The notes under the pieces were generated by a model. That model made no database searches and had not been told where the DNA came from. It worked only from the letters and a program-made list of their open reading frames with translations. Position numbers and translations under genes: made by a program. Source: Candidatus Omnitrophota bacterium (GTDB lineage Bacteria > Omnitrophota > Gorgyraeia > Duberdicusellales > 4484-171). From it: 64,000 nt of DNA. Positions 3,503 to 33,165 of the stretch are shown one piece after another. How positions within the stretch are numbered: position 1 is the first letter of the stretch; each line of letters opens with the position of its first letter. Location: NCBI GenBank assembly GCA_014729775.1, contig WJJJ01000013.1, positions 2,947 to 66,946 on the forward strand. The letters run 5' to 3'.

Positions 3503-4620
3503 GGATACTTCATATGATCTCTTCTTCCGGGTTTTACGGCGCGGAACGGGTCGTGCTGGATTTGTTGTGTTTGGCGCGGGATCAGGCGTGGAAGCCGTAC
3601 CTGGTCTGCCTTAAAAGCGCAGAAAAACCGGATCCGGAGCTGTATGGCCGGGCGCAGGAGTGTGATATCGAATCCTACGTGTTCTCCTGCGGGGCGAAGA
3701 TCGACATGGGTACGGTGAGGAAATTGAACGGCTTTGTACGCGCGGAGAATATTGAGTGTATTCACGCGCACGGGTATAAAGCCGACGTGTACGCGTTGAT
3801 GGTGTCCCGTTCCTGCCGGGTTCCGGCAGTGTCTACTTTGCACGGCTGGACAGGAGAGGATCATAAAGTCGGTTTTTACGAACGGATCGACCGCTGGATC
3901 GTGCGCATGTTCGCGCATCTGGTGCCGGTATCGCCGGACATTGAAGAAACGCTGAAACATGCCGGGATCAGCGCCGAAAAGATCACCTGTATCCCTAACG
4001 CGGTCGACACTTCCCGTTTCGATCCGTCAGATGTTGAACCGTTTCGAACCGAGTGGCATCTGGACGGGGCGCTGGTGTTTGGAAGTGTGGGGCGGTTGAG
4101 TCCGGAAAAGGGGCACCGGATGCTTATTCGCGCCTTTTCCCGGATTGCGGCTGAATTCCCGCGGGCGCGTCTGGTGATCACGGGCGAGGGACCTTTGCGG
4201 GACAATCTGCGGCAGCTTGCCTCGGACGAAAAGATTGGGGAAAAGGTGGTGTTTAGCGGACGGCAGACGGAAATGGAACGGGTATACCGTACCATGAACG
4301 TATTCATCCTGCCGTCACTGACCGAAGGGTTGCCGCTGGCCTTGCTGGAAGCGATGAGCATGGCCTGTCCCGTGATCGCGACCCGCGTCGGCGCGATCCC
4401 CGGAGTGGTGGATCCGGCGCAGGGTATGGTAGTGGATCCGGAAGAAACGGCGTTGACCGACGCGATGCGCCGCTTCGCCGCGGACGAATCATTGAGAATC
4501 CGCTGTGCCGCGGCCGCGCGCGCGAAAGTGATACATGAATATGATCTCGCCTCATTTTTTGGAAAATATCAACAAGTGTATGCCCGGGTGTGTCCGCCGC
4601 GGACGGAGAGTCGTGTATGA
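3499..4620 (+). CDS. glycosyltransferase family 4 (GT-B), second EPS sugar transferase
   Basis: EGLPLALLEAMSMACPVIATRVGAIPGVV GT4 signature; ATGA overlap with upstream GT4. Confidence 0.85.
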   Translation: MRILHMISSSGFYGAERVVLDLLCLARDQAWKPYLVCLKSAEKPDPELYGRAQECDIESYVFSCGAKIDMGTVRKLNGFVRAENIECIHAHGYKADVYALMVSRSCRVPAVSTLHGWTGEDHKVGFYERIDRWIVRMFAHLVPVSPDIEETLKHAGISAEKITCIPNAVDTSRFDPSDVEPFRTEWHLDGALVFGSVGRLSPEKGHRMLIRAFSRIAAEFPRARLVITGEGPLRDNLRQLASDEKIGEKVVFSGRQTEMERVYRTMNVFILPSLTEGLPLALLEAMSMACPVIATRVGAIPGVVDPAQGMVVDPEETALTDAMRRFAADESLRIRCAAAARAKVIHEYDLASFFGKYQQVYARVCPPRTESRV

Positions 4621-5456
4621 AAAAGGTGACCAATTTTCTCACGATTGACGTGGAAGAGTATTTTCAGGTCGAGAACTTTAAACGGCATGTTTCCTATGCC
4701 GAATGGGATTCGTTCCCGTCGCGTGTGGTACCGAACACAAGAAAGATCCTCGCTCTGCTCAAACGGCACCGGGTACGGGCGACATTTTTTGTGCTGGGGT
4801 GGGTTGCGGAAAAATTTCCGGAATTGGTACGGGAGATCTCTACGGATGGGCATGAAGTTGCTTCTCATGGCTACCGGCATGAGCTGATCTTCCGGCAGAC
4901 CGCGGAAGAATTTCGGCGTGATGTGCGCGAGGGCAAAGACCTGCTGGAGAATCTGATTCAGAAAAGAGTGTTAGGCTACCGCGCGCCGAGCTGGTCGCTG
5001 ACGCAAAAATCACCGTGGGTATATCAGATATTACGAGAGGAAGGAATTGTTTATGATTCCAGCGTGTTCCCCTATTACCGGTATGACGGCGGATTTCGTG
5101 ACGGCGAGACAAAACCGTATCAGGTCGACGCCGGGCTGTGGGAGTTTCCGGTGTCGACGTTCAGGGTCGCCGGGCAGAATATTCCGTTCGCAGGCGGGGG
5201 CTATTTCCGTCTTTTTCCCTATCGGCTGATCCAATACGGGGTCCGGCGGCTCAATGCGCGGGGACAGCCGGCGATGGTTTACCTGCATCCCTGGGAATTC
5301 GACCCGGGTCAGCCCCGGTTTCAGGCGAGTTACTTAAGTTCGTTCCGGCACTATGTGAATCTGCATACTACGGAAAGAAAACTTGACCGGCTGTTGGGAG
5401 CGCTTTCTTTTTCTTCGCTTGATTCGGCACTCGGCCCGGAGAAGGGGTGCCCGTGA
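4617..5456 (+). CDS. polysaccharide deacetylase, PEP-CTERM-locus subfamily (TIGR03006-like)
   Basis: N-terminus FLTIDVEEYFQVENF and HEVASHGYRHE match the exosortase-locus deacetylase subfamily as I remember it; NodB-type fold. Confidence 0.7.
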   Translation: MKKVTNFLTIDVEEYFQVENFKRHVSYAEWDSFPSRVVPNTRKILALLKRHRVRATFFVLGWVAEKFPELVREISTDGHEVASHGYRHELIFRQTAEEFRRDVREGKDLLENLIQKRVLGYRAPSWSLTQKSPWVYQILREEGIVYDSSVFPYYRYDGGFRDGETKPYQVDAGLWEFPVSTFRVAGQNIPFAGGGYFRLFPYRLIQYGVRRLNARGQPAMVYLHPWEFDPGQPRFQASYLSSFRHYVNLHTTERKLDRLLGALSFSSLDSALGPEKGCP

Positions 5457-6289
5457 TGAAAAAATATGTTAAAAAAATAGTGTCGTGGCTGGCCGTATAC
5501 AGCGGCATCGCGCGAGCGCGGCGGTATTTCCGGCGCAATCTGCCGGTGGTGTTATGCTATCACCGGGTGGTGGACGATCTTGCGCAGGCGCACCAGTATT
5601 CTGATTCGGGAATGGTCGTCTCACGGGAAACCTTCCGCCGCCAGATGGAATTCTTGCGGCGGCATTACTGCGTGATTTCCATGGATACCTTTACCCGGTT
5701 TCTGGACGGTGCCGGGCCGTTGCCTCAATATTCGGTGCTGGTCACGTTTGATGACGGATACAAGGACAACTTCACCTGCGCCTACCCGGTATTCACAGAA
5801 CTGGACCTGCCGGTGACGCTGTTCGTGACCACGGGTTTTATCGACGGCCGGATCGTCCCGGAGTGGGACCGGGAAGTGAATGGACAGCGGCCGGAGATGC
5901 TCTCCTGGGAAGAGATCCGGCGGATGGAGTCCAACGGCGTGACTATCGGCGCGCATACGGTGACCCATCCCGAGTTCGGTACTACCGATCCGAGCCGGGA
6001 GGAGGAGAGGTTGACCGAGATCCCGGCATCCAAACTGCGGCTGGAGGGTGTATTAGGCCAGCCGGTGGAAGTATTCGCCTATCCTAAGGGGAGCATGTCG
6101 ACCGCCGCGCTCAACGCGGTCAAGCAGGCCGGATTTAAAACCGCGTTTGTGGTGCGCCGCCGCGGGGCCGGTCATGACCGGAGGTATTGCTGGCCGCGAA
6201 TACCGGTAAATGAAGGCCGGACGCGGGGGCCGCGCGGGGAAACCGACATGAGGATGTTTGCCTGCGCGCTCGCGGGGATATGGAAATGA
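5456..6289 (+). CDS. polysaccharide deacetylase (NodB homology domain)
   Basis: VLVTFDDGYKDN...TLFVTTGFID...HTVTHP NodB motifs; alt GTG 5447. Confidence 0.8.
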   Translation: MKKYVKKIVSWLAVYSGIARARRYFRRNLPVVLCYHRVVDDLAQAHQYSDSGMVVSRETFRRQMEFLRRHYCVISMDTFTRFLDGAGPLPQYSVLVTFDDGYKDNFTCAYPVFTELDLPVTLFVTTGFIDGRIVPEWDREVNGQRPEMLSWEEIRRMESNGVTIGAHTVTHPEFGTTDPSREEERLTEIPASKLRLEGVLGQPVEVFAYPKGSMSTAALNAVKQAGFKTAFVVRRRGAGHDRRYCWPRIPVNEGRTRGPRGETDMRMFACALAGIWK

Positions 6290-8820
6290 AGGGAACCCAA
6301 CACACAACACAGAGTATCCCGGCGGTAGTGCTGGGTATGACCGCCAACGGGCTGTCGGTCACGCGAAGTTTAGGCCGTCAAGGCGTGCCGGTGACCGGGG
6401 TTGATTCCGGCCGGCATGAGCCGGGGATGTATTCCTGGTACTGCGATCCCCGGGTGTGTCCCGATCCCGGGAACGATCCTGAGGAGTTTCTGCATTGGCT
6501 TCTTGATTTAGGACGGTCATTCGCCCGGCGCCCGGTGCTGTATCTTACGTCCGATAAATATATCGGCGTGGTATCCCGCGCGCGGGAATCTTTGGAAAAA
6601 TATTTTTCATTTTTACTTCCGGACAAAGAGATCGTGGATGCGTTTTTGGACAAGGAACGCACCGCGGAACTCGCCGCGCGTCACGGCGCGCGTCATCCGC
6701 GTACATTCAAAGTACACGAGGAACGTGATCTGCGGGAGGTGTTGTCCATGGTCGCGTATCCGGTGATCTTAAAGCCGCGGTTTTCTCACGTGTGGAGCCG
6801 GTGTTACGGGGGGCAGAAGGTAATCATTGCAAATACTGGCCAAGAATTAAAGGATAAATATTTATACTTGCGAACCCAGTCACAAGAAGTTTTGGTTCAG
6901 GAAATCATCCCTGGACCTGATCAGAATGTGCATTTATTTATGGCATATTACAACGAGTATTCCGTATCCCTGGCGTTGTTCTGTTGCCGGAAACTGCGCC
7001 AGTATCCGCCGCATTTTGGTGTTGGGGCATTAATGGAAAGTATAGAAGAACCGTCAATCCAATCTGTGGGGGAGAGATTCTTAAGGTCAATAGGATATAG
7101 AGGACTTGTGGGGGTTGAATATAAGGTGGATGAACGTACTGGTGAACCGGTTCTTATTGAAGTTAATATGCGGACGAGTCTTGGCGGAGAAATAAGCGTT
7201 CAATCGGGGGTTGATCTTCCGATGATCATGTATCGCCATTTGGCCTGCGGCGAGTCTGAGCCGGACAAAAAGCACTTTTCATTCGTGCCCGGCGTGAAGC
7301 TGATGAACCTTGATCTCGATACCGGGAGCTTTCTTCGTTATCGTCGGGAAGGGGGAATGACACTTGGAGCATGGTTTCTTTCTTTTCGCGCACCGAAACT
7401 GGCCCATACCTATTTTGCCGCGGATGATTTGCGTCCATTTTTCGCGGTCTATTCCCGTTTTCTCAGAAAGATAGGCAGGAAGGTATTTGCGCGCGCGGGC
7501 ACTGCGAGCGCGCCGGCGCGGCGGGTTCCGGCGGTGGTGCTGGGTATGACCGCGAACGGGCTGTCGGTCGCGCGCAGCCTGGGCCGCAGAGGCATTCTTG
7601 TGATCGGGCTTGATTCGGTTGCCGACAGTATAGGATTCAGATCCCGGTATTGCCGCGCCGCGTGCTGTCCGGATGTCCTTCGGGAGGAAGCGGGATTTGT
7701 CGAGTTCCTTGAGCACGTGGGAAAACATTACCGGGAAAAGCCGGTGCTGATCATGACTGCCGATAGCTATGTTGACTGCGTGTCCCGGCATGAGGCGCGG
7801 CTGAAACGTTCTTTCCGGTTCACGATCCCGCGCCGGGAACAGGTTTCGGCGTTCCTGGACAAACGCCGCACCTACGAAGTCTTTCGGGAATACGGGCTCG
7901 CGTGTCCGCGTTCATTCCTGATCGCCTCGGCGGACGGCGCCGTGCGTGCGGCGGCGAAGGTGACGTTTCCCTGCGCGCTCAAGCCCGCCCGCTCGCATGT
8001 CTGGCGTCAAAAGTACGGCGGGAAAAAACTCTTCGTGGTCCGGTCGCCCCGGGAGCTTCGGGAACTGGCGATTAAGCTGATCGCACAAGGGCAGGAGATC
8101 TTCGTTCAGGAGCTTATCCCCGGAGCGGATAACTTCATCTATACCTTTGTCGCCTATTATGACCGGCAGGGCCGGGCGCTGGGGATCTTCACCAAGCAGA
8201 AGATACGCCAGTATCCAATAAAGTTCGGGATCGGCTGTTTTCACGAATCGGGCCAAAATCCGGAAGTACGGGAAAAAGGCCTGCGTTTTCTTTCGGCGCT
8301 GGGCTATACCGGCTTCGCGGGGATCGAATTCAAATACGACTCGCGGGAGAAAAGGTATAAAGCCGTGGAGGTCAATATCCGGACGCTGATGAGCGGGGAA
8401 CTCGCGGTGCGCTCGGGAGTCGATTTTCCTTATTTGTATTATCGCGATCATACGCAGCAGGCGGTTACTCCGGTCACGGCGTTCCGGGAAGGGGTCAAAT
8501 TCGTGCATGAAGACTTAGATCCGGCGTCGTTTTTCCGTTACCGGGCGCGCGGCGAACTCACCCTGCGCCAATGGCTCGCGACCTACCGCGGAGAAGTTCA
8601 TTGCACATATTTTCGTGTAGACGATCCGTTGCCTTTTTTGTTTATGTCCTGCAGGATAGTCCGGACCGCGTGGTGCAAATTAAGGAAATACGCGAGGTTC
8701 GGATTGTTACGATTGAGGGCCGGGCCTGTCGCTTGGAAAAGGGATTCCGTGCCGCGTTTGGATCGGGTGGCTCAGTTTGATGAACCTGAGGTGACAGAAG
8801 GAAAAAAGGCGGGAATATAA
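6280..8820 (+). CDS. tandem double ATP-grasp (COG3919-like carboxylate-amine ligase) fusion protein, 846 aa
   Basis: Two ~400-aa halves each start with P(A)VVLGMTANGLSV(T/A)RSLGR(Q/R)G and carry an ATP-grasp core (EYKVDERTGEPVLIEVNMR / EFKYDSREKRYKAVEVNIR); the repeat is visible at DNA level (6313-6378 vs 7519-7584). Confidence 0.7.
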   Translation: MEMKGTQHTTQSIPAVVLGMTANGLSVTRSLGRQGVPVTGVDSGRHEPGMYSWYCDPRVCPDPGNDPEEFLHWLLDLGRSFARRPVLYLTSDKYIGVVSRARESLEKYFSFLLPDKEIVDAFLDKERTAELAARHGARHPRTFKVHEERDLREVLSMVAYPVILKPRFSHVWSRCYGGQKVIIANTGQELKDKYLYLRTQSQEVLVQEIIPGPDQNVHLFMAYYNEYSVSLALFCCRKLRQYPPHFGVGALMESIEEPSIQSVGERFLRSIGYRGLVGVEYKVDERTGEPVLIEVNMRTSLGGEISVQSGVDLPMIMYRHLACGESEPDKKHFSFVPGVKLMNLDLDTGSFLRYRREGGMTLGAWFLSFRAPKLAHTYFAADDLRPFFAVYSRFLRKIGRKVFARAGTASAPARRVPAVVLGMTANGLSVARSLGRRGILVIGLDSVADSIGFRSRYCRAACCPDVLREEAGFVEFLEHVGKHYREKPVLIMTADSYVDCVSRHEARLKRSFRFTIPRREQVSAFLDKRRTYEVFREYGLACPRSFLIASADGAVRAAAKVTFPCALKPARSHVWRQKYGGKKLFVVRSPRELRELAIKLIAQGQEIFVQELIPGADNFIYTFVAYYDRQGRALGIFTKQKIRQYPIKFGIGCFHESGQNPEVREKGLRFLSALGYTGFAGIEFKYDSREKRYKAVEVNIRTLMSGELAVRSGVDFPYLYYRDHTQQAVTPVTAFREGVKFVHEDLDPASFFRYRARGELTLRQWLATYRGEVHCTYFRVDDPLPFLFMSCRIVRTAWCKLRKYARFGLLRLRAGPVAWKRDSVPRLDRVAQFDEPEVTEGKKAGI

Positions 8821-8824: not shown

Positions 8825-10903
8825 ATGGAAATAGTGTACACCGGTCTCCACAGTCTGAACGTGACCCTTCTGCTGTTTTTTGCGGTGCGGCTGCTGCGCA
8901 GAAAACATATTGTGAATCTGCTCGCGGGATTGAGCGTGAGCGCGCTGGCGGTGTATGAGGCGGGCAACGCTTTGTTGTCCGCCGGAGTCGCGGCATCGGC
9001 GCGGGTGATCGGCGCCGGGTTCTGTCTCGCGCCGGTGATGTGGATGGTATTGAGCGTGTCATTGCTTCCGCCCCGGTCGTCGCGCTGGAACCGGGTGATC
9101 CTTACGCCGGTGTTTGTGGTCTTATCGCTGGTATTCTTCCTGGTATGGTGGATCAATCCCTTTGTGCGCGCGGCTCATTTTACCGGCGGGGCCGAGTTGG
9201 CTCTGACCGCACGGTATTTCTTTGTACTGGTGGTATTTGACTGTATTCTGGCCTTGTCGAATTTGGAACGGGCTTGGTATTACCGCAAGGATCCGCTCAC
9301 GCGCCGGGTGCTGCTGAGCGGATTCCTTTTTTTAGTTCCCTTCGTTTTTATCTCCACCTACGCGGTGTTTCTTTCGAAGATGCACGTGAGCGGCCTGGCC
9401 TATTCCGCGGGAGCGGTGCTCATCGGCTGCGGAACGTTCTGGCCGCTTGCCCGCAGGGGATTCGGCCTGGCGGAAGTCAAAGAGGACGTGGCGGTAAATA
9501 CGTCGATGACGCTGTTTCTGCTCGGCGGATATTTGTTTCTCATCGGCGCCTTCGTGAAGCTGTTTCAGTGGTTCGGCTGGAATCTGAGCACGCTGTTCTC
9601 TTTCCTGACTACCGGGTTTGTTCTGCTGGCGCTGATGCTTCTTCTTTTTTCTCCCACGGTGAAACAGCGGCTCAAAACCGTGATGATGAGACACTTTACC
9701 CGGCAGAAGTACGACTGGCAGAAACTGTGGGAGGATTTCACCTACCGGATCTCCCTGGTGACGGATATCGAAGAACTGAAACAGAAGATCGGCGGCGCCT
9801 TGCAGAGGATCATGGGCGCCGACGAGGCGAGGATAGTATTGTTTGAGGAACGGGGCCCGTTTGAGCCGGAGTTCGAAGACTGGATGCTGCGCCGCGCCGG
9901 CGCGTTCGGCATGCGTGAGGTGCAGACGGAGGCGATGAAGAAGAAATATCCCCGTGCCTGTGCCTACCTGGAAGCCAGCGGCGCGGAGATGGCCGCGCCG
10001 CTCTACGGCGACAAAAAGGTCATCGGATTGATTTTTCTTTCGTTCCGCGGGGAACGGTTCGTGGACCGGGAACTGCTCAAGCTGATCACTTTGCAGGCTT
10101 CGGGAGTGATCGTCAACTGCTGGGCGTACCGCGCTCTGCAGGAGGCGGAAAAGAAAGAGTCCTTATATAAGGTATCGTCGTTCGTGATCCATGATGTGAA
10201 AAATTACATCAATCATCTTTCACTGCTGGTGTCCAACAGGGACAAGTTCGGCCGAAAAGACTTTCAGGAGGACGCGTTGTTTACCATTGAGAGTACCATC
10301 GTAAAGATGCAGAAGTTGATCGATGAGTTCCGTACTTTACGGGGCGAGGTGAGCGTGCGCAGCCGCGCATGCGCGGTTGCCGGGGTAGTGAACGGGGTGC
10401 TGAAAGAAATGGGAGAGACGCGTCTGCGTGGGGTGGACGTAAGAAACGAAGTGCCGGCGGATATCGTCGTGGTGAGCGATCCCGACCATCTGTATAAGAC
10501 GGTTCTCAATGTTGCGCTCAACGCGGTGGAGGCGATGCAAGGACGGGGGCGGCTTGAGTTCCATGCGGAAGAAAAAGAAAACCAGGGGATTCTTGAGGTG
10601 CGGGATACCGGCCCGGGGATGACGCAGGATTTTCTTGAAACGAAACTGTTCACGCCGTTCAGTTCGACCAAATCCAAGGGACTGGGGATCGGGCTGTATC
10701 AGTGCAAAACGATCATAGAAGCCAATCATGGCCGTATTGAGGCCGAAAGTACTCCCGGGGAAGGGACGGTATTTCGGATTGCCCTGCCGGCGGCGGGAAG
10801 GGGGCCGGCCGTGCCGGGCGATGAGAGGAACGTAGGAAAAGACACGACAGAGAAAGGATCCGAGTATGAGCAAGAACGAACAGGAACCACAGATCACGGC
10901 TGA
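8825..10903 (+). CDS. prsK: PEP-CTERM system sensor histidine kinase PrsK-like (N-terminal polytopic domain + GAF-like + HisKA/HATPase_c)
   Basis: ~8 TM helices N-terminal, then HDVKN H-box and GPGM...GLGIGLY ATPase motifs; sits immediately upstream of a sigma-54 regulator in an exosortase locus. Confidence 0.75.
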   Translation: MEIVYTGLHSLNVTLLLFFAVRLLRRKHIVNLLAGLSVSALAVYEAGNALLSAGVAASARVIGAGFCLAPVMWMVLSVSLLPPRSSRWNRVILTPVFVVLSLVFFLVWWINPFVRAAHFTGGAELALTARYFFVLVVFDCILALSNLERAWYYRKDPLTRRVLLSGFLFLVPFVFISTYAVFLSKMHVSGLAYSAGAVLIGCGTFWPLARRGFGLAEVKEDVAVNTSMTLFLLGGYLFLIGAFVKLFQWFGWNLSTLFSFLTTGFVLLALMLLLFSPTVKQRLKTVMMRHFTRQKYDWQKLWEDFTYRISLVTDIEELKQKIGGALQRIMGADEARIVLFEERGPFEPEFEDWMLRRAGAFGMREVQTEAMKKKYPRACAYLEASGAEMAAPLYGDKKVIGLIFLSFRGERFVDRELLKLITLQASGVIVNCWAYRALQEAEKKESLYKVSSFVIHDVKNYINHLSLLVSNRDKFGRKDFQEDALFTIESTIVKMQKLIDEFRTLRGEVSVRSRACAVAGVVNGVLKEMGETRLRGVDVRNEVPADIVVVSDPDHLYKTVLNVALNAVEAMQGRGRLEFHAEEKENQGILEVRDTGPGMTQDFLETKLFTPFSSTKSKGLGIGLYQCKTIIEANHGRIEAESTPGEGTVFRIALPAAGRGPAVPGDERNVGKDTTEKGSEYEQERTGTTDHG

Positions 10904-12278
10904 ATCTGTTGCGCCTAAAATGAAACTGCTGCTGGTAGATGACGACGAGGGAGTTTTGCGTCAGCTTAAGTGGGCGCTGGCTGAGGAATACGAGGTATAT
11001 ACCGCGGCCACCAAAGACGATGCCCTGCGGCTGCTGCGGGAGGGGCATCCGGAGCTGGTGACACTGGATATCGATTTGAGCGGACGTCCCACCTTTTCCA
11101 AGGACGGGATCGATATCCTGGAGGAAATAAAAGTGCAAGATCCTTATACCAAGGTGATCATGATCACGGGCAACGACGCCAAGGATCTGGCGATTGAATG
11201 TATCGGCAAGGGAGCGTTCGATTATTACGTCAAGCCTGTGAACGTCGACGATTTGAAAGTAATGCTGAAACGGGCGCAGTACATTCAGGAGCTGGAGCGG
11301 GAGAACCGGCGGCTGAGCCGGGAACTGCATGAATCGGCCCGGTTCGAAGAAATGATCGGTGATTCCGAAAAAATGCGTGAGGTGTTCTCTCTGATCCGGC
11401 GCGTCGCTCCGGCAGATGCGACCGTACTGATCACGGGGGAGAGCGGTACGGGGAAGGAGCTCGCGGCGCGGGCGATCCATTACTCCAGCGCGCGTAAAGA
11501 ACGTCCCTTTATCGTGATCAACTGCGGCGCGATCCCCGAAAATCTTCTGGAAAGTGAGCTCTTCGGCCATGAAAAAGGCTCATTCACCGATGCGCATGCC
11601 CGGCGGGTGGGGAAACTGGAAGTGGCCGGTAAAGGCACGGTGTTTCTGGATGAGATCGGCGAGATGAGTCTGAACCTTCAGGTGAAAATATTGAGATTCC
11701 TGCAGGAACGGGTGATCGAACGCGTCGGAGGCAACAAGCCGCTCGAACTCGACGTGCGGGTCATCGCCGCGACCAACAGCGATTTGACCAAAAAGATCAA
11801 GGAAGGAAAGTTCCGGGAAGATTTATATTACCGGTTAAGCGTGATCAATCTTCTTCTGCCGCCTCTGCGCGAACGCGGAGAGGACGTGCTGCTGCTGGCG
11901 AGTTTTTTCCTGCAGAAGTTTATGAAGGACGGCGCGGGCAAGGAACTTCGCGGGTTTACCAAAGAAGCGAAAGACAGACTGCGTACCTATCACTGGCCGG
12001 GGAATGTGCGGGAAATGGAAAATCGTATCCGGCGGGCGGTGATCCTGGCCGACAGTCCTTTGATTTCCCCCGCGCATCTGGGCTTCCATCCCGACTCCCG
12101 CGAAGAAGACAGGCTCAGTAAATTTTCGCTGAGGGATGTCCGCCAGCAGGCCGAGACAAAAGTGATCGTCCGGGCCCTGCAGGAATGCAGGGGGAATGTG
12201 AGTCTTGCCGCGAAAATGCTCGGGATCACCCGTCCTACTCTTTACGATCTCATCAAAAAATACGATATTGAACTGTGA
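10866..12278 (+). CDS. prsR: sigma-54-dependent response regulator PrsR-like (REC + AAA+ sigma-54 activator + Fis-type HTH)
   Basis: [10 protein letters not shown]...D receiver, GESGTGKE Walker A, GAFTGA-type [15 protein letters not shown] loop, C-terminal HTH; 38-bp overlap with prsK. Confidence 0.85.
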
Positions 12279-12383: not shown

Positions 12384-12399
12384 TGGCATGACTTTTGCT
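12384..12399 (+). promoter_or_regulatory. sigma-54 (-24/-12) promoter TGGCATG-N4-TTGCT
   Basis: tTGGCATgacttTTGCTa; GG at 12385-86, GC at 12397-98, 10-nt spacing; ~65 nt upstream of PEP-CTERM gene start 12463. Confidence 0.7.
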
Positions 12400-12462
12400 A
12401 TTGCTTAATCGAAGATCCACGAATGAAAAGAACGATGACATATGAAGAGAATGGAGGGATTG

Positions 12463-13248
12463 ATGAAAACAATGAAAATACTGGTATTGAGTGTGCTCAT
12501 GACCGCGTTGACGGCCGGGTCTTCGTTTGCCTATTTGATTGACGGAGATCCCAGCGACTGGGGGATTACGCCCTTTACGGACTGGACTCCGGACAGCTGG
12601 ACCGCTGACTGGACGGAACAGGACAACTGGAATCCGCAGGAACCCGTGCAGGGGGCTGATTACGATTCCGATCCGTTTAACGAGCGGTGGGACCTGGAAG
12701 CGATGTATTTCGACGATGACGATGATTATTTTTATTTCGGCATCGTGACCTCGAATCCGTATGAACACAACTGGGCCAAAGAGGATCTGGCGATCGATCT
12801 GGACGGAGACGATTTCCCGGAATACGGGCTGGACGTAGCCAATCTGGAAGGCGATCAGCTGGAAATGAGAGGTGTCTATTCGGTCGAGGACTGGCGTGAA
12901 TTGCGCGACGTTCCCTACCGTATCGATGAGGGTGATCAGATCGGCCAGTACCAGATCTATCAGAAGTACCTCGGCGATATCGAGCCGGATCTCGGTCAGC
13001 CGGGCGGATACTACGGGCATACCTATTTTCTGGAGATGAAGGTGAACCGGGCGCTGTTCGGGAATATTCCCTGCGGTACGCCGATCAATATTTTGTTTTC
13101 GCGGGTGACCTGCTTGAAGGACTGGTTTATGGTCAACGGCTGTACCAACGGCAATTGTCCTCCGGGAGTCATTCCCGAACCGGCGACATTGTTCTTGCTG
13201 GGCGCAGGTCTTTTCGGCATAGCCGGATCCCGCCGCAGAAAAAAATAA
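12463..13248 (+). CDS. PEP-CTERM sorting-domain protein (secreted, D/E/W-rich)
   Basis: Signal peptide MKTMKILVLSVLMTALTAGSSFA; C-terminus VIPEPATLFLLGAGLFGIAGSRRRKK (PEP motif + TM + basic tail). Confidence 0.85.
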   Translation: MKTMKILVLSVLMTALTAGSSFAYLIDGDPSDWGITPFTDWTPDSWTADWTEQDNWNPQEPVQGADYDSDPFNERWDLEAMYFDDDDDYFYFGIVTSNPYEHNWAKEDLAIDLDGDDFPEYGLDVANLEGDQLEMRGVYSVEDWRELRDVPYRIDEGDQIGQYQIYQKYLGDIEPDLGQPGGYYGHTYFLEMKVNRALFGNIPCGTPINILFSRVTCLKDWFMVNGCTNGNCPPGVIPEPATLFLLGAGLFGIAGSRRRKK

Positions 13249-13299
13249 CCGCATTCCTTGTAGTACCTTTCTTTACGGCAGGGTGTATTGAGTGATACA

Positions 13300-13333
13300 A
13301 CGCAGGGGTTCCCCACCCCTGCGTCTTCATTTT
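13300..13333 (+). terminator. rho-independent terminator
   Basis: ACGCAGGGG-ttcccca-CCCCTGCGT stem-loop followed by cttcatttt. Confidence 0.6.
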
Positions 13334-13514
13334 CCCGGCCGGAATCCCTTGTGTGACTGCGTGAGAAAAGGCGGCGCGCGGCTCTTTTCCGGTGTCGGTT
13401 TTTTTTACGATGTCACGCAATTTTACAGTCATTCCGCCAGGGGGAGGATTCCGAGGCAAGAAGATTGAGGGGATTCTCTTTCCTTAGGGGGGGCGGGGGT
13501 AAAAAAGTCAATTT

Positions 13515-13530
13515 TGGCATGGATGTTGCT
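13515..13530 (+). promoter_or_regulatory. sigma-54 (-24/-12) promoter TGGCATG-N4-TTGCT
   Basis: tTGGCATggatgTTGCTa; GG 13516-17, GC 13528-29, 10-nt spacing; ~60 nt upstream of start 13590. Confidence 0.7.
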
Positions 13531-13589
13531 ACAGACTTATAAAGACTAATCATAAGAGAATGGCGGTTGAGGGAAAAGGAGGCATAATT

Positions 13590-14336
13590 ATGAAGAAGGT
13601 AGTGAGTTTGGTGTGCGCGGTACTCGTAGGGATGATGGTTCAGGGGGTGGCTGAAGCATACACGACTTCGCTCACATTCAGCGGGAGCGCGCTATATGAC
13701 CTGGAGAATCCCGTATATTTTACGGAAGAGATGGTGCCGGATGCTGATACCCGGGAATTTTTGAACGGAGAAGATCCGTTTACCGGCGTGGGCGTAATAG
13801 ATTATACGATTGATTGGGATCTGCCGGAGTGGGATGAGCCGCGGTATTGGTCGGTTGATGCCAGCGCGAGTCTCTACGGTGAATACGTCGACGGCAGCGG
13901 AACGCATCATCCGGACATGGATCTGCATTGGTCCTCCGGCACGGCGTATATGGGACATTTTTCCCTGCAGACTTTGTTCGGGGGAATGACCGAAGATCAG
14001 GTAGTGAATCAAATCGTGGCAATGCTGGATCCGTATTACAGCGGAGATCTCGGCGGATACGCCGTACTCGAAGAGGGATTGGGCGGCATCGCGTTGGTCG
14101 GTGACTTGAATGCCGGGACGATTTACCTCGGTACCCTTGAGGATATTGACAGCGTACTGTTTCAGTTGAACGAAGATTATGACGGTTCCATGGACGTGAC
14201 CTCCGCGGATGTGACGTTCAGCGGTCAGGTGAACGCGACTGCCGCGGCTACGCCGGAACCGACGACCGTCTTCATGCTGTTGTCCGGATTGTGCGGACTG
14301 GCCGGGGTCGGTTTTAAAAAGAAACAGAAGGAGTGA
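13590..14336 (+). CDS. PEP-CTERM sorting-domain protein
   Basis: RBS GGAGG + ATG 13590; signal peptide MKKVVSLVCAVLVGMMVQGVAEA; C-terminus ATPEPTTVFMLLSGLCGLAGVGFKKKQKE. Confidence 0.85.
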   Translation: MKKVVSLVCAVLVGMMVQGVAEAYTTSLTFSGSALYDLENPVYFTEEMVPDADTREFLNGEDPFTGVGVIDYTIDWDLPEWDEPRYWSVDASASLYGEYVDGSGTHHPDMDLHWSSGTAYMGHFSLQTLFGGMTEDQVVNQIVAMLDPYYSGDLGGYAVLEEGLGGIALVGDLNAGTIYLGTLEDIDSVLFQLNEDYDGSMDVTSADVTFSGQVNATAAATPEPTTVFMLLSGLCGLAGVGFKKKQKE

Positions 14337-15010
14337 GAGCGGTGAGGAAGACTGTATTATTTTTGATCGGCGCATTAGTGATATCTTTTCCGGCGTACGC
14401 GATTACCTGGCTGACGCCCAATCTGGTGGTGAATCCGGGCGCGGAGACTGGTGATACCTCCGGCTGGGAAGTGTACGGTCCGGCGTACGCGACGACCAGC
14501 CAGTCCCAGAGTACCGGGACGGTCCTGCCTCATTCCGGCGATTATTTCTTTTCCTATGCGCAGAACGCGGCTTCGGATGCGGTTTTAGTCCAGTACGCGG
14601 ATGTGTCGACTTTTGCCGGTTTGATTGATTCCGGCCAGGCATATGTGCAGGCTGGGTTTTGGTACCAAACTGAAGAATATCAAGGTTCGAGCGATGAGGC
14701 GTTCGGTTCGCTGGGTTTTTTTGAAGGGGACAGCAGCGATATGCCGTTTGACGTGCTCACATCCGATCCGCTGGTGTCATCGAGTTGGGCGTACACGGAG
14801 GTGATGGAGTTGATCCCTGCCGGTACCCGGACTATAGGATTGGCAATGATTGGAGAGCTTGAGTCCGGCTCGTACGTGAACGCGTTCTTTGACGACGCGC
14901 AGCTGCGGGTCGGCACTGAAACCGTTATTCCCGAACCGGCAACCCTGCTGCTGCTTGGTAGCGGCCTGCTGGGGCTGGGCGGGACGCGGCTGCGGCGCAG
15001 AAAAAGATAA
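14333..15010 (+). CDS. PEP-CTERM sorting-domain protein
   Basis: GTG start (14333 or 14342) overlapping upstream stop; signal peptide; C-terminus IPEPATLLLLGSGLLGLGGTRLRRRKR. Confidence 0.8.
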   Translation: MRAVRKTVLFLIGALVISFPAYAITWLTPNLVVNPGAETGDTSGWEVYGPAYATTSQSQSTGTVLPHSGDYFFSYAQNAASDAVLVQYADVSTFAGLIDSGQAYVQAGFWYQTEEYQGSSDEAFGSLGFFEGDSSDMPFDVLTSDPLVSSSWAYTEVMELIPAGTRTIGLAMIGELESGSYVNAFFDDAQLRVGTETVIPEPATLLLLGSGLLGLGGTRLRRRKR

Positions 15011-15066
15011 ACTGTCTGTAGTGCGTTCAGTGAGGAGTGACATTTTTTGAGGAGAGAGGAGTTGGC

Positions 15067-15780
15067 ATGAAGAAGTATGTGTGTCTTGTTTCGTTGTTAA
15101 TGCTGATGATGTACACCCCGGGTGCGTACGCGCTCGTGACCAATATTTCGCTTGATCCGGTTGATTGGGAAGTGGTGCCCGGATCTCAGACGATTAATTC
15201 CTCTCTAAGTAATCCGTCGCCGGATATGCTGCGGATCCAGAAAAGTTCCGCAAATCCAGGCAGCGGGCTGGGCGCATTCTATCAGACGACAGATAGGTAC
15301 GATTTCACTGACGCGATACTCCAGTACCAATGGCGATTCAACGGCCAGGGATCTTATGGGAACGTGTCGATCGGGCCTCGCCCATGGCCGGAAGGTTCAG
15401 GGGTCGGCGGCCGCTTTACCAGCGGCTGGTCTTTTGCGGGGAGTACGCTCATCACTTCCAATCAGTGGTATTATACTCAGTTGATTATTCATGACGATTT
15501 ATCCTATAGTTACGATATCAGCGCGTTGGGATACGGAGAAGGCGGTTTTGTGTCATCGACCGGGTCGCTTTCTTCTGCCCAGTACGATTCTCTTCAGGAC
15601 GGGATCTTTCGCGTGAACATATTTGACAACTGGGCGGCGAATCAATACGTGGATATCACCGATGCGACAATCGAAAGCGAGGGCGGTCCGCAGGGCCCGA
15701 TTCCCGAACCGGCAACCCTGCTGCTGCTTGGTAGCGGCCTGCTGGGGCTGGGCGGGAAGCGGCTGCGGCGCAGAAAATGA
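15067..15780 (+). CDS. PEP-CTERM sorting-domain protein
   Basis: RBS GGAG + ATG 15067; signal peptide MKKYVCLVSLLMLMMYTPGAYA; C-terminus IPEPATLLLLGSGLLGLGGKRLRRRK. Confidence 0.85.
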   Translation: MKKYVCLVSLLMLMMYTPGAYALVTNISLDPVDWEVVPGSQTINSSLSNPSPDMLRIQKSSANPGSGLGAFYQTTDRYDFTDAILQYQWRFNGQGSYGNVSIGPRPWPEGSGVGGRFTSGWSFAGSTLITSNQWYYTQLIIHDDLSYSYDISALGYGEGGFVSSTGSLSSAQYDSLQDGIFRVNIFDNWAANQYVDITDATIESEGGPQGPIPEPATLLLLGSGLLGLGGKRLRRRK

Positions 15781-15808
15781 CATTTGAGGCAAAAGGAAAG
15801 GATTTCGC

Positions 15809-16447
15809 ATGAAAGTTCTTATTTTAATCGCACTCACCGTGGGGATTATGTGTACTTCCGGTCAGGCGGCCGAAGCATTGATGATCCCTGAAGTTGAACC
15901 GAACGATTCATTCGCGGATGCAATGAATCTGGATCCCTATTTTTCCGTCGGGGCCAATTCCGATATCGTTGATTCGGCAACCGTGCCCTGGGTTTCAGTG
16001 AGCGGGACCGGGAACGATACTTACGATTACTATTCGTTCACCGTTCCCTTCGCCGGGTCGCAGGGGATTTTTGAAATTGACTATGGGTATGGGGTCGGCG
16101 GAAGTATTGATCCGATACTCCTGCTCTACGCGTCGCCGTACAACCAGCTTGACGGTGACGACGATTCCAATCCGGCATGGGGTGCCGGCGGCAGTACCTC
16201 CTGGTTGGATTCGTATTTACCGCATGGCGGCGGGTGGTATACCTTTCATTCTCCCGGGCTGTATTATCTGCGGGTGAGTGAATGGTCGAGAGGACCGGTG
16301 CGTCCCGGCGGAACGTATACCCTGCAGGCATCAGTGAGCGGGCATAGCACGGATACGGTGATCCCCGAGCCGGCGACCCTGCTGCTGTTGGGCAGCGGCT
16401 TGCTCGGCGTGGGCGGATTCAAGCTTCGCCGCAGGAAAACAGCGTAA
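15809..16447 (+). CDS. PEP-CTERM sorting-domain protein
   Basis: Signal peptide MKVLILIALTVGIMCTSGQAAEA; C-terminus VIPEPATLLLLGSGLLGVGGFKLRRRKTA. Confidence 0.85.
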   Translation: MKVLILIALTVGIMCTSGQAAEALMIPEVEPNDSFADAMNLDPYFSVGANSDIVDSATVPWVSVSGTGNDTYDYYSFTVPFAGSQGIFEIDYGYGVGGSIDPILLLYASPYNQLDGDDDSNPAWGAGGSTSWLDSYLPHGGGWYTFHSPGLYYLRVSEWSRGPVRPGGTYTLQASVSGHSTDTVIPEPATLLLLGSGLLGVGGFKLRRRKTA

Positions 16448-16591
16448 GTGTCGGTATCTTTGACAAAGTCGGATATGTTAACAACGCTTTCGGCGAAAGA
16501 GAGAGGCGAGAGCCTTACAGAGGGAGTTATGACCAGAAATAAGGCAAAATCAGGCCGAAAGAGAAGTTTTTTTGCATTGACGGCTACTTTT

Positions 16592-16607
16592 TGGCACAGG
16601 AATTGCT
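16592..16607 (+). promoter_or_regulatory. sigma-54 (-24/-12) promoter TGGCACA-N4-TTGCT
   Basis: tTGGCACaggaaTTGCTt; GG 16593-94, GC 16605-06, 10-nt spacing; ~75 nt upstream of ATG 16682. Confidence 0.75.
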
Positions 16608-16681
16608 TTAATATCAGGTGGAACGTGGGAACACAAATGAATAGCTTGAAACGGAAGAGAGCAGAACAAGGAGGAATAGCG

Positions 16682-17575
16682 ATGAAAAGAGTTTTAGGAG
16701 TAGCAGCATTGGGGATTTTACTTACGGTGTGCGGCAACGCGTTTGCGTTTCACGCCAGTAACATTCAGTTTGATCTGACGCCGGCCGGTATTACCGGGAC
16801 CACTCCTGACGGTGATAATGTAACCGGTTTTTTCAATCAGTTGCAGACATATATGCAGACGTCATCTTACGTGACGGATAACGGAGACGGGTTGCCGTCT
16901 GTAGGAGATACGTTTGTGGATGTGGGTGATTTGAATGTGACCGCGTTGCTTGGTGGCGGGTCACTGTTGGATACCGAAGGGTTGAACACGCCGACGCTCG
17001 GGTATGAAATTACCGGTCGCTGGGATGATTTGACCGGCGGAATCGTGGATGCGTCGGTATCCGGTGGGGGAACAACGACCCTTTTGTATGATTACACCGG
17101 CGGAACGCTGAATATGTACGCGGACCAGCCGCCCAACCAGACTTACAACAGCGGTATTGGCTCCAACGATGACAATCCGGCAACGTTCACCGACGGGTCG
17201 TTGATCGGTACCCTTCAGCTTGTGAGCGGAAGCGGTTCGTTGATTGTTGACGCGGCCGGCAATCCTATTCAGGGCGCGACTACCCTTTCCTGGAGATTTA
17301 CCAATATGCTTCCCGGGTTTTGGCTGGATGCGGCCGGTAATGATCTGAGCACTTACGTGTTTACTGTAGGTTGGGAAGTACAGGCGCTGTCCGGCTCGGA
17401 TACTCATGGGGAGACGTTGATTCTTACCGATAACGGTGACGGTACCTATCGTGTTGACTCAGATCATGACGGTTCCGTAAGTGTGGGCGTGATTCCGGAA
17501 CCGGCGTCTCTGCTTCTTTTGGGCGGCGGATTGTTTGGGTTAGCCGGCATTGGTATTCGCAAGAAAAAGAAATAA
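16682..17575 (+). CDS. PEP-CTERM sorting-domain protein (G/T/D-rich)
   Basis: RBS GGAGG 16670-74 + ATG 16682; signal peptide MKRVLGVAALGILLTVCGNAFA; C-terminus VIPEPASLLLLGGGLFGLAGIGIRKKKK; the listed ORF 16448.. is an in-frame upstream extension without RBS. Confidence 0.85.
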   Translation: MKRVLGVAALGILLTVCGNAFAFHASNIQFDLTPAGITGTTPDGDNVTGFFNQLQTYMQTSSYVTDNGDGLPSVGDTFVDVGDLNVTALLGGGSLLDTEGLNTPTLGYEITGRWDDLTGGIVDASVSGGGTTTLLYDYTGGTLNMYADQPPNQTYNSGIGSNDDNPATFTDGSLIGTLQLVSGSGSLIVDAAGNPIQGATTLSWRFTNMLPGFWLDAAGNDLSTYVFTVGWEVQALSGSDTHGETLILTDNGDGTYRVDSDHDGSVSVGVIPEPASLLLLGGGLFGLAGIGIRKKKK

Positions 17576-17603
17576 ACCTTTTGGCGGATTGTACAAGGTT
17601 CAA

Positions 17604-17640
17604 AAGAGGCAGGGATAATTCCCTGCCTCTTTCTTTTTTT
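17604..17640 (+). terminator. rho-independent terminator
   Basis: AAGAGGCAGGG-ataatt-CCCTGCCTCTT followed by T9 run. Confidence 0.8.
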
Positions 17641-17651
17641 AGACCGTAATC

Positions 17652-18512
17652 ATGAAAAAAGCCGTATCTATCCTACTTGCCGGGATTTTGACCGCCTCCG
17701 GTATCTCTTCTGCTTCGGCGGCGGTGGTGTATCTGTCCTCAACACGTCAGATTGATCTCGGCGGGGTGACTTCGGAAATGTATCAGGTGCTGAAGTATGA
17801 TACTTTCAGCGGCGAAGCCTCGCTGTTTTTCGATGAATTCGATCCGCTCAATGTCCTGACCGGAAGAGATAAGCAGATCGACGCTCTGCACGTACTCGAT
17901 GAGGATAATATTATCCTTTCTACCACCCGTGATGTGCGCTTCAGCGAAGAGGAGGACGAGCCGTGGTTTAAGGACGGCGATGTGTTTAGATACACCTTTT
18001 CTACCGGGACGGCGGTCCTGCTGTTCAGCCAGGAGCATTTCACCGATGCCCGGGAAGATATCAATGCGTTGCAGTATATTGACGAGGACACGCTGTTACT
18101 GTCCGTGCGGGGCAATGCTGAGCTCGGCGGCTTATCTTTTCGCGACGGTGACGTGGTGCGCTATACTCTTTCCACCGATACTGCCGAATTGTTTTTCAAC
18201 GAAGACAGTTTTTTGGGCAACGAGGACATTGACGCGTTCTCTATGATAGACGAACAGAACATCCTGTTATCCACGCAGGCAAGCGCGACGCTCGGTGATC
18301 TTGTGTTCCGGGACGGAGACATTATCCAGTATAACTTGATCACGGGACAGGCGAGTCTGTTCTTAAGCGAAGATTTGATATCTTCGCCGGTGGATGTCGA
18401 CATTGACGCCTTTCACTTCGTGGCCGGTACCCCGGTGATCCCCGAACCGGCGACATTTCTGTTGTTCCTTTTCGGTCTTTTTCCCCTTTTCCGCTGCCGT
18501 TGCCGCGGGTAA
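17652..18512 (+). CDS. PEP-CTERM-like sorting-domain protein with divergent C-terminal tail and internal triple repeat
   Basis: Signal peptide; three ~45-aa repeats (DGDVFRYTFSTGTAVLLFSQEHF / DGDVVRYTLSTDTAELFFNEDSF / DGDIIQYNLITGQASLFLSEDL); C-terminus VIPEPATFLLFLFGLFPLFRCRCRG. Confidence 0.75.
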   Translation: MKKAVSILLAGILTASGISSASAAVVYLSSTRQIDLGGVTSEMYQVLKYDTFSGEASLFFDEFDPLNVLTGRDKQIDALHVLDEDNIILSTTRDVRFSEEEDEPWFKDGDVFRYTFSTGTAVLLFSQEHFTDAREDINALQYIDEDTLLLSVRGNAELGGLSFRDGDVVRYTLSTDTAELFFNEDSFLGNEDIDAFSMIDEQNILLSTQASATLGDLVFRDGDIIQYNLITGQASLFLSEDLISSPVDVDIDAFHFVAGTPVIPEPATFLLFLFGLFPLFRCRCRG

Positions 18513-18583: not shown

Positions 18584-18682
18584 GTTAACTTCGTAGGTTA
18601 ACCGCATAGCCAAAAAAGCATTGATTCTGTTGACTTTGGTTAACTTCGTAGGTTAACACGGGGGGAGGTTAACACGGGGGGG
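18584..18682. repeat. REP-like GTAG-containing palindromic repeats (GTTAAC-ttcGTAG-GTTAAC x2 plus GGTTAACACGGGGG x2)
   Basis: Exact 19-bp copies at 18584-18602 and 18639-18657; half-copies at 18651-18664 and 18667-18682; immediately upstream of an IS200/RAYT-type transposase gene. Confidence 0.55.
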
Positions 18683-18763
18683 CGGATGTGGGTGAGCGGA
18701 GGAGGGGTGACGAAGAGTTGACAGAGGGCGAAAAAAGAGAGATTATAACGAGAGGAGGTGAGG

Positions 18764-19468
18764 ATGAAGCTGAGAATTGAGGACGGCGGCGTGTATCATA
18801 TATTTAATCGGAGCATCGCCAATTTTGTTATTTTTCATACGGAGAGCGATTATAGAAGGATTATCTGCGCTTTTTCTTTTTTTCAATGGAGAGATCTTCC
18901 CTGTAGTTTCAACCGGCTTCTGAAACGGATTGAAACGGGTCAGCTCACAGAAAAGGACATTTTAAAAAAACAGATTCGATTACCGCGCACTCAAATCATC
19001 GCCTATTGCCTCATGCCGACTCATTTGCATATGATTTTAACACAGATAACTGCTGACGGAATAGCTCAGTATATGAAAAACGTACAGAACAGCTATACAC
19101 GCTATTTCAATACCAAGTACCACAGAAAAGGGCCCTTATGGGAAAGTCGGTATAAAAAAGTTCGGGTTACTACTGACAACCAGTTGCTGCATTTGACCCG
19201 TTACCTGCATTTAAATCCGGTCACGGCTCATCTGGTTGACGATCCGGAGCAATGGCCGTATTCTTCGTATCATGAGTACCTCAACCGTATTCCTGCAGAC
19301 GAGAGGATCTGCGGGTACGAAGATGTATTGGAAGTCAAACCTCGATCTTACCAGAAATTCGTAAGAGAACGCATTCATGATCAACGGGATATTGCCGCGC
19401 TCAAGAAATTTCATTTGGAAGATTGCGGCGATCATTTGTATGCAAAAATACCTTCTGTTCAATCTTGA
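18764..19468 (+). CDS. IS200/IS605-family Y1 (HUH) transposase, REP-associated tyrosine transposase (RAYT)-like
   Basis: YHIFNRSIANFVIF N-terminus, HUH motif LMPTHLHMIL, catalytic-Tyr region YTRYFN...RYLHLNPV; gene is conspicuously AT-rich relative to flanks. Confidence 0.75.
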   Translation: MKLRIEDGGVYHIFNRSIANFVIFHTESDYRRIICAFSFFQWRDLPCSFNRLLKRIETGQLTEKDILKKQIRLPRTQIIAYCLMPTHLHMILTQITADGIAQYMKNVQNSYTRYFNTKYHRKGPLWESRYKKVRVTTDNQLLHLTRYLHLNPVTAHLVDDPEQWPYSSYHEYLNRIPADERICGYEDVLEVKPRSYQKFVRERIHDQRDIAALKKFHLEDCGDHLYAKIPSVQS

Positions 19469-32473: not shown

Positions 32474-32474
32474 A

Positions 32475-33141: not shown

Positions 33142-33165
33142 TTAGTTCTCCTCAAAAGAGAACCT

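Follow-up and report, generated by a model that had tools for sequence, protein, structure and literature searches.

Probable gene conversion between the sorting-signal segments of two neighbouring PEP-CTERM genes with unrelated bodies in an Omnitrophota exosortase locus

Introduction

Among the surface proteins of environmental bacteria, few evolve as fast or are as poorly understood as PEP-CTERM proteins. The 64,000-nucleotide stretch analysed here (hereafter called the window; assembly GCA_014729775.1, contig WJJJ01000013.1), from the metagenome-assembled genome (MAG) of a Candidatus Omnitrophota bacterium, carries an array of seven open reading frames (ORFs), g1 to g7, all on the + strand between positions 12442 and 18512. 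Each of them ends in a PEP-CTERM tail, which is composed of an xPEP motif, a hydrophobic helix and an Arg/Lys cluster. The neighbouring genes g3 and g4 encode unrelated bodies and close with almost the same 78 nucleotides (nt). How did two unrelated genes come to end in one and the same sorting-signal segment? Here we show that the DNA of the segment itself was copied, and we propose that it was probably copied by a recent gene conversion.

Results

The tails of g3 and g4 were copied as DNA

Copy A of the segment, in g3, and copy B, in g4, agree at 77/78 nt (coordinates in Table 1). The lone mismatch, 14985 C versus 15758 A, exchanges Thr for Lys. A first-pass annotation, made from the sequence alone, had described the last 78 bp of the two genes as identical apart from one base and the rest of the genes as unrelated, and both statements hold; its interval for the second copy, 15698-15776, is shifted by 1-2 nt from the correct 15700-15777, and its term “exon” for the segment is a misnomer in a bacterium. 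The shared tract extends from the Ile codon preceding the PEP motif to the last Lys codon. The 36 nt on its 5′ side and the sequence on the 3′ side of the stop codon are unrelated between the two genes, and BLASTP detects no similarity between the g3 and g4 bodies outside the tail.

Does this identity belong to the peptide or to the DNA? The 25 amino acids common to the two tails are encoded by the same codon in every case (25/25), as compared to 7.6 expected from the codon usage of 25 ORFs of the window (P = 10^-13.3). In the remaining tail pairs of the window, the same codon is used at 41% of the identical residues. The tail of g5 shares 23/26 amino acids with that of g3, with a nucleotide identity of 76% and the same codon at 11/23 positions. 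Similarly, the tails of the window and those of a second Omnitrophica genome have 20/24 residues in common but only 9/20 codons. Moreover, the usage of Leu, Gly and Arg codons in the window is not extreme, with CTG making up 40% of the Leu codons. Because all 25 codons are the same in g3 and g4, while g5 encodes nearly the same peptide with 76% nucleotide identity, selection on the peptide is insufficient as an explanation. The identity between the two tails therefore resides in the DNA, and the DNA was copied.

The tails and the bodies have separate histories

Arrays syntenic with that of the window lie downstream of genes for the histidine kinase PrsK and the response regulator PrsR, or of PrsR, in the Omnitrophica MAG GCA_028711575.1 (L001), in the JGI metagenomes (L002/L003, L164/L165 and L166) and on a binned contig (L004). 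A scan of genome contigs with PrsR as the query returned mostly generic NtrC-type activators, and an array was found only in L004, where PrsR is 67% identical. In L166, a small gene with bAvd / 23S-rRNA-IVP Pfam matches lies between PrsK and PrsR (2229-2597); the bAvd fold is that of an accessory protein of diversity-generating retroelements.

Body-only BLASTP comparisons define three sets of related genes across these arrays. The first consists of g1, L001_g1 (5063-5833) and L002_g2 (4647-5441), with 40-51% identity, and the second of g3, L001_g3 and L002_g3, with 49-51% identity. The third set is PepA-like and contains g6, L002_g5 and, via L002_g5, also L001_g5; the direct comparison of g6 with L001_g5 gave no match at E<=0.01. 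The genes between these orthologue anchors vary by genome. Within the second set, the nucleotide identity of the g3 tail is 99% to the tail of its unrelated neighbour g4, as compared to 69% and 60% to the orthologue tails in L001 and L002, respectively.

Was the tail of g3 or g4 newly acquired, or did it replace an older one? The alignment of the g3 family ends in diverse PEP-CTERM tails that are the members' own. A full HMMER search for g4 found 43 relatives at E<1e-10, the best with 40% identity, and each of the ten homologues retrieved (P0032-P0039, P0041 and P0043) likewise has its own PEP-CTERM tail. Since the homologues retrieved for both families carry tails of their own, an existing tail was overwritten, rather than gained for the first time. 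The idea that g4 is an ORFan that captured its first tail, which came from a word-indexed search, was dropped after the full HMMER search had found the 43 relatives.

Tail sharing recurs in a second genome

The L001 array provides an independent replicate of tail copying, with a different tail sequence. Four of its genes, whose bodies are mutually unrelated, have tails with 83-94% nucleotide identity and exact runs of up to 64 nt, and two further unrelated genes bear a second tail type with 89% nucleotide identity. All of these sharing pairs are significant under L001's own codon usage (P <=3.5e-5). In addition, the distant paralogues L001_g2 and L001_g6 (25% identity, E 4e-4) nevertheless each bear the tail type of their physical neighbours. 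As in the window, tails in L001 are more alike between neighbours than between orthologues. The proposal of the first-pass annotation that recombination or concerted evolution homogenises the sorting segment is thus supported by the codon identity and limits of the g3/g4 tract, by the comparison of tail identity with that of the orthologues, by the ancestral tails of both families and by this replicate.

Repeat mosaics also make up the long intergenic regions of the L001 array, where blocks of 110-180 nt are 88-98% identical between different regions. Between positions 3900 and 10000, they contain GTTTGAC repeats spaced by 22 nt (17 copies of a 34-nt unit), together with inverted GTCAAAC copies. 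These repeats may be enhancer arrays, bound by PrsR, that were homogenised together with the tails.

We surveyed the tails in 164 sequences (the window and 163 loci, 2.0 Mb), taking, for any two genes whose bodies are unrelated, the longest exact run between their tails. When the two genes come from different loci, the 99th percentile of these runs lies at 13 nt and none is longer than 16 nt. Within loci, the runs reach 58 nt in the window, 64 nt in L001, 25 nt in L088, 20 nt in L004 and 17 nt in L084, L096 and L002, and thus exceed the between-locus maximum in 7/10 of the loci with at least two tails. This comparison lends support but does not decide the matter, as the sample is small and gene pairs from the same locus have a common codon usage.

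Gene conversion and its alternatives

What copied the segment? The best explanation is probably a recent gene conversion between the g3 and g4 tail segments. We propose that non-reciprocal homologous recombination took place between two tandem, already similar tail segments of one operon, so that one 78-nt tail overwrote the other. On the 5′ side, the tract would be bounded by the conserved codons of the PEP motif, and on the 3′ side by the Arg/Lys codons, where the alignability of g3 and g4 ends. Both the PEP codons (CCCGAACCGGC) and the Arg/Lys codons (CGCAGAAAA) occur in several tails, and they could supply the terminal homology for the conversion. The exchange may have proceeded by RecA-type conversion or by template switching. 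Sporadic recurrence of such events in the lineage would uncouple the history of the tails from that of the bodies.

Several observations weigh against this explanation. First, the starting homology of ~75% across 78 nt is short for classical RecA-dependent conversion. Second, no relative in any of the collections searched exceeds 54% protein identity, so that no pre-conversion allele, donor or recipient was found; the metagenome scan with the g3 family also gave no near-identical strain, and exact look-ups of g3, g4, g5 and the annotated g3 protein (P0001), in an index without the source assembly, gave no match. Third, the comparison of runs within and between loci is built on just 10 multi-tail loci. 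Fourth, the arrays in L002/L003 and L164/L165 are without homogenisation (43-68% nucleotide identity between tails), and in L165 the bodies of two tandem paralogues are 79% identical, while their tails have only 56% nucleotide identity. The selective drive for homogenisation, if any, is therefore weak or intermittent, and homogenisation is episodic, not pervasive, because these arrays show none. Fifth, the shared tract in L001 continues for 90-100 nt beyond the stop codon (5757-5935 versus 7663-7841, 92% over 179 nt; 10947-11112 versus 11645-11810, 88% over 166 nt), and the copied unit there may be the tail together with the 3′ flank or regulatory DNA. Finally, the source of the window is a MAG, in which consensus homogenisation or another assembly fault could have produced the identity.

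The L165 paralogues deserve a separate description. They are tandem members of the g1 family (2090-3635, equal to L164 9217-10762), and their tails share 16/26 amino acids, which is the opposite of the situation in g3 and g4. This suggests that the tail of one paralogue was also replaced. The histories of tails and bodies are hence uncoupled in both directions.

This uncoupling also suits modular duplication, in which a duplicate of a tail, alone or with its flank, is joined to a new body, or in which the body of a duplicated g3 is replaced by an unrelated gene. Such a model was stated by Haft et al. 2006 (PMC1569441), and the L001 tracts with their 3′ flanks, together with the repeated intergenic modules, resemble a cassette duplication. 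However, the identity in the window ends at the stop codon and no flank is duplicated. An in-frame replacement of the body requires two precise illegitimate junctions, and in both families the retrieved homologues already end in tails of their own at the corresponding position. Modular duplication is therefore less parsimonious than conversion in the window and unlikely to be the origin of the g3/g4 repeat, while it fits L001 better.

An artefact is very unlikely. An assembler or polisher of the MAG could have homogenised distinct tails or joined strains at the repeat, and an exact repeat of 58 nt can confuse assembly graphs with a small k. Nevertheless, each copy reads in frame between unique flanks, one mismatch between the copies is retained, and a collapsed repeat would leave one copy, not two. 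In addition, L001 and L002 have the g1-like, g3-like and PepA-like members in the same, syntenic order. Similar sharing, each time with a different sequence, is also seen in an independently assembled MAG and in several metagenome contigs.

It is highly improbable that the 78-nt segment is kept for a function of the nucleic acid itself, be it an RNA structure, a small-RNA target or a mobile repeat. The array is followed by a gene for a REP (repetitive extragenic palindromic)-associated tyrosine transposase (RAYT) and REP-like palindromes, a repeat-mobilising machinery close at hand. The segment is not palindromic, does not resemble the GTTAAC repeats, and occurs just twice in the window, both times precisely in the tail reading frame. 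The reading as an RNA element was dropped, as the region has no Rfam match and the fold of the segment has a z-score of -1.07, with 30/200 shuffles folding at least as well.

The chance is negligible that purifying selection on the peptide, imposed by the demands of the exosortase, combined with a strong codon bias to make the DNA look identical without any transfer: the tail type PEPATLLLLGSGLLGL-G, which g3, g4, g5 and four L001 genes have in common as a peptide, does point to lineage-wide selection on the peptide, and species-specific clustering of PEP-CTERM domains is on record (PMC1569441), but the codon comparisons given above are against it.

Organization and regulation of the locus

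The features of the window that concern the array and its processing are listed in Table 1. The locus is a standard PEP-CTERM/exosortase locus, which also encodes glycosyltransferases, a priming glycosyltransferase and tetratricopeptide repeat (TPR) proteins. The XrtA-specific model TIGR03109 is the best specific match of the exosortase, with 173.8 bits, under the cut-off of 208. No clear PrsT was found: the TPR proteins at 28700-31569 reach only 46-61 bits on TIGR02917, for which the cut-off is 312.

Table 1. Coordinates of the array genes, the repeated tail segment, and the regulatory and exosortase features of the window.
Feature	Position	Strand	Description
XrtA-system polysaccharide deacetylase	4590-5456	+	TIGR03006 349.8 bits, cut-off 276.2; marks exopolysaccharide (EPS) locus
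PrsK-like transmembrane histidine kinase	8825-10903	+	HATPase_c; best NCBIfam TIGR02916, full length, 228 bits, cut-off 300
PrsR, PEP-CTERM-box sigma-54 response regulator	10866-12278	+	TIGR02915 581.2 bits, cut-off 502.6
Sigma-54 -24/-12 promoter-like site, 5′ of g1	12384-12399	+	TGGCATGACTTTTGCT, 1 mismatch
g1	12442-13248	+	Acidic, aromatic-rich PEP-CTERM protein; passes hidden Markov model (HMM) cut-offs
Terminator-like hairpin after g1	13300-13324	+	10-bp stem, 7 GC pairs, then T-rich tail
Sigma-54 promoter-like site, 5′ of g2	13515-13530	+	TGGCATGGATGTTGCT, 1 mismatch
g2	13590-14336	+	PEP-CTERM protein; ORF open from 13560
g3	14333-15010	+	PEP-CTERM protein; predicted carbohydrate-binding module (CBM)-like jelly-roll body; family conserved
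Repeat copy A	14927-15004	+	Tail-coding segment of g3, 78 nt; 77/78 nt as copy B
g4	15067-15780	+	PEP-CTERM protein; predicted concanavalin A (ConA)/lectin-like beta-sandwich body
Repeat copy B	15700-15777	+	Tail-coding segment of g4, 78 nt
g5	15809-16447	+	PEP-CTERM protein; tail peptide nearly that of g3/g4, DNA diverged
Sigma-54 promoter-like site, 5′ of g6	16592-16607	+	TGGCACAGGAATTGCT, 0 mismatches
g6	16682-17575	+	PepA-like PEP-CTERM protein, Gly/Thr/Ser-rich; ORF open from 16448
Terminator-like hairpin after g6	17603-17632	+	13-bp stem, then T run
g7	17652-18512	+	Acidic repeat protein; degenerate PEP-CTERM-like tail VIPEPATFLLFLFGLFPLFRCRCRG
Eighth PEP-CTERM gene	28365-28619	+	Mini lipoprotein-like Gly-rich protein; tail QPEPATIVMFGLGALGVFGARKFKKK, at 28539
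Exosortase (EpsH family), presumed tail-processing enzyme	31613-32473	+	TIGR02602 166 bits, cut-off 105.6
EpsI, exosortase-associated	32463-33116	+	TIGR02914 103.6 bits, cut-off 42.8
rpoN (sigma-54)	35762-37153	-	TIGR02395 377.8 bits, cut-off 277

How is the array transcribed? The PrsK-like gene overlaps the start of PrsR, which has the domain order REC, sigma-54 AAA+ and HTH_8. In the window, sigma-54 sites with at most one mismatch occur 4 times, as compared to 1.22 expected, and three of the four are found a short distance 5′ of g1, g2 and g6. For g1 and g2, TTTACA-like strings precede the -24 element by ~90 nt, and motif 1 of Haft et al., the upstream PrsR-binding motif, ends in TTTACA (PMC1569441). 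The gaps between g2 and g3, g3 and g4, and g4 and g5 are -4, 56 and 28 nt, respectively. A scan for terminator-like hairpins found none in the gaps from g2 to g5, and the sole match in this span, 15408-15428, lies within g4. The g2 start is preceded by AAGGAGG, 8 nt ahead of the ATG at 13590. The site at 13515 probably serves g2 to g5, and the arrangement of sites, gaps and hairpins suggests g1, g2-g3-g4-g5, g6 and g7 as the probable transcription units. As g2 to g5 probably form a single unit, g3 and g4 would belong to one operon.

A second histidine kinase and an NtrC-type sigma-54 activator are encoded immediately after the exosortase and EpsI, beside rpoN on the opposite strand (33127-37153); the locus therefore has two sigma-54 two-component systems. 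This second activator scores 423 bits on TIGR02915, below the cut-off of 502.6. A further sigma-54 promoter-like site (26672-26687, TGGCATGGAATCTGCT, 2 mismatches) precedes the ORF of the priming glycosyltransferase (26717-27598) by 30 nt, and EPS synthesis may be under the same sigma-54 control as the cargo genes. Between the polysaccharide deacetylases and PrsK, an 846-aa protein (6280-8820) consists of two ATP-grasp halves (carbamoyl-phosphate-synthase-like / RimK-like). Directly after the array, the RAYT gene and the repeats that precede it lie at 18584-18681 and 18758-19468. The RAYT gene reaches 68 bits on NF047646 (cut-off 80) and has the Pfam domain Y1_Tnp. Ahead of it, there are two exact copies of the palindrome-containing 19-mer GTTAACTTCGTAGGTTAAC, which is absent from the rest of the window, and two of AGGTTAACACGGGGGG.

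The cargo proteins and their predicted folds

The first-pass annotation had called all seven ORFs PEP-CTERM genes with signal peptides and low-complexity bodies, acidic/aromatic or rich in Gly/Thr, and had suggested cation- or glycan-binding matrix proteins. The seven ORFs exist, and the tails of g1 to g6 pass the cut-offs of both PEP-CTERM models, with 20.5-27.4 bits on TIGR02595 (cut-off 16) and 22.9-30.6 on PF07589 (cut-off 20.7). The tail of g7 is below threshold, with 17.5 on PF07589, no match to TIGR02595 and no NCBIfam match at all; it has the PEP motif and the helix, but Cys residues are interleaved in the basic cluster (RCRCRG), and the tail ends in FRCRCRG. The body of g7 contains three to four internal repeats of ~58 aa, F[KR]DGD[VI].[RQ]Y.[FL].T[GD].A.L[FL][FL]...[ED]DIDA. 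The N-termini of all seven proteins show a basic stretch, a hydrophobic run of 13-28 residues and Ala-X-Ala-like sites, and are likely signal peptides on this heuristic judgement.

The bodies are indeed strongly acidic, with an isoelectric point of about 4.1. Lys and Arg make up 1-5% of their residues, as compared to 13% in the rest of the window's proteins, and they are rich in Gly, Ser and Thr (together up to 37%). Measured in windows, their entropy of 3.2-3.4 bits is the same as in the background proteins and nowhere drops under 2.5 bits. The bodies are thus compositionally biased yet not of low complexity. The same body composition, poor in Lys/Arg and Cys and rich in Ser/Thr/Asn, is general among PEP-CTERM proteins (PMC1569441).

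What do these bodies do? The AlphaFold2 models of g3 and g4 have pLDDT (predicted local distance difference test) values of 83 and 88, respectively, and both predict beta-sandwich folds. By Foldseek, the g3 model matches CBM61, CBM16, CBM22 and the sugar-binding domain of Fbs1 (E 1e-9 to 1e-6), and the g4 model matches legume lectins, calreticulin and CBM15 (E about 4e-6 to 1e-4). The likeness to the CBMs (CBM61/16/22/4) and ConA-like lectins therefore lies in the predicted folds, with best E values of 1e-9 and 4e-6. The differences are a sequence identity of 5-20%, TM (template modelling) scores of 0.4-0.56 and the lack of a detected Pfam domain in g3 and g4. For these two proteins, the predicted folds are consistent with glycan binding, and the suggestion of glycan-binding matrix proteins stands to that extent. 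The array most likely supplies lectin-like matrix proteins, which would be anchored by the exosortase on the exopolysaccharide layer or set free into it.

The eighth PEP-CTERM gene of the window, just upstream of the TPR and exosortase genes, encodes a lipoprotein-like signal (LTGC) and a Gly run, directly followed by the tail. Mini-proteins with NPEPTT tails also close the arrays in L002 (8273-8497, Gly-rich) and L165 (6395-6616), and the mini PEP-CTERM protein may be a conserved minimal substrate of the exosortase. In public records of the source MAG, g1 seems to be annotated as 181 aa (P0180, 68% of the ORF), which would cost it the signal peptide, and g3 as 222 aa; the start codons of the annotated g1 and g3 are probably mis-set.

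Discussion

On the basis of these results, we propose the following sequence of events.

Cargo expression: PrsK/PrsR and sigma-54 would control the array of exosortase cargo genes. Each cargo would be a Sec-exported, very acidic beta-sandwich or repeat protein.

Tail processing: The exosortase and EpsI, encoded about 14 kb downstream, would cleave and transfer the PEP-CTERM signal. This processing would place the cargo in or on the exopolysaccharide matrix.

Tail exchange: By gene conversion between neighbouring genes, tails would from time to time be overwritten at the DNA level, which offers a simple route for many cargoes to stay compatible with a single exosortase. A broader proposal, which we consider quite unlikely, is that the tail segment, in some genomes together with the 3′ flank and the repeated intergenic regulatory modules, serves as a portable recombination junction. 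In that case, frequent short conversions at the junction would keep unrelated cargo matched to one exosortase and re-pair bodies with tails, and a cassette-like recruitment and swapping of matrix-protein cargo would be under selection, beyond an occasional neutral conversion.

For the annotation of such arrays, it follows from the g3/g4 pair that tail similarity should not be taken for evidence of orthology or of a recent whole-gene duplication. The window and the second Omnitrophica genome provide clean DNA-level evidence of tail copying between neighbours with unrelated bodies. Our literature search found no paper that combines PEP-CTERM with “gene conversion” or “concerted evolution”, and a broader search on sorting signals gave nothing relevant.

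How does the g3/g4 exchange compare with known systems? Gene conversion and concerted evolution of bacterial paralogues are familiar from the tuf genes, the rRNA operons, and the pilE/pilS and opa genes of Neisseria. The likeness lies in the non-reciprocal copying between nearby repeats, the identity of paralogues exceeding that of orthologues, and the sharp tract edges. The difference is that g3 and g4 are homologous only over a very short 3′ module of 78 nt, and nothing found here is evidence for programmed variation or dedicated machinery.

Among individual cargo proteins, g6 resembles PepA (NF033554), known from Zoogloea and Aquincola. PepA is a PEP-CTERM protein that depends on RpoN and is required for flocs to form, and proteins of its type are floc and matrix factors (PMC9850573). 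The alignment to the model is full length (protein 3-295, model 2-261), the sequence is Gly/Thr/Ser-rich, and g6 has a perfect sigma-54 promoter-like site in a locus with PrsK/PrsR and rpoN. On the other hand, its score of 76.9 bits on NF033554 lies under the cut-off of 80, and the characterised members come only from Betaproteobacteria.

The closest precedent for the whole locus is the PEP-CTERM/exosortase (EpsH/XrtA) system of Haft et al. 2006 (PMC1569441). The common features are the three-part tail (PEP motif, transmembrane helix and C-terminal basic cluster), the N-terminal signal peptides (likely ones here), the adjacent PrsK (here PrsK-like) and PrsR genes, the upstream sigma-54 -24/-12 sites (promoter-like here), and the presence of the exosortase, EpsI, TPR proteins, glycosyltransferases and a deacetylase in one locus. 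The tails are also more alike within than between genomes in both cases; in the 2006 study, the PEP-CTERM domains clustered by species in the protein tree, which was read as the rapid paralogous expansion of a modular domain. In contrast, the host here belongs to Omnitrophica, a lineage absent from the 2006 list. The array has about three or four transcription units, whereas mostly single-gene operons with long leaders were described there, and here PrsK and the exosortase score below the PrsK/XrtA equivalog cut-offs, with no clear PrsT. Finally, the within-genome similarity seen here extends to synonymous sites in genes with unrelated bodies, which the 2006 paper did not examine. The demonstration of copying at the DNA level and the uncoupling of tails from bodies are thus a modest, incremental addition to the known picture, rather than a new system.

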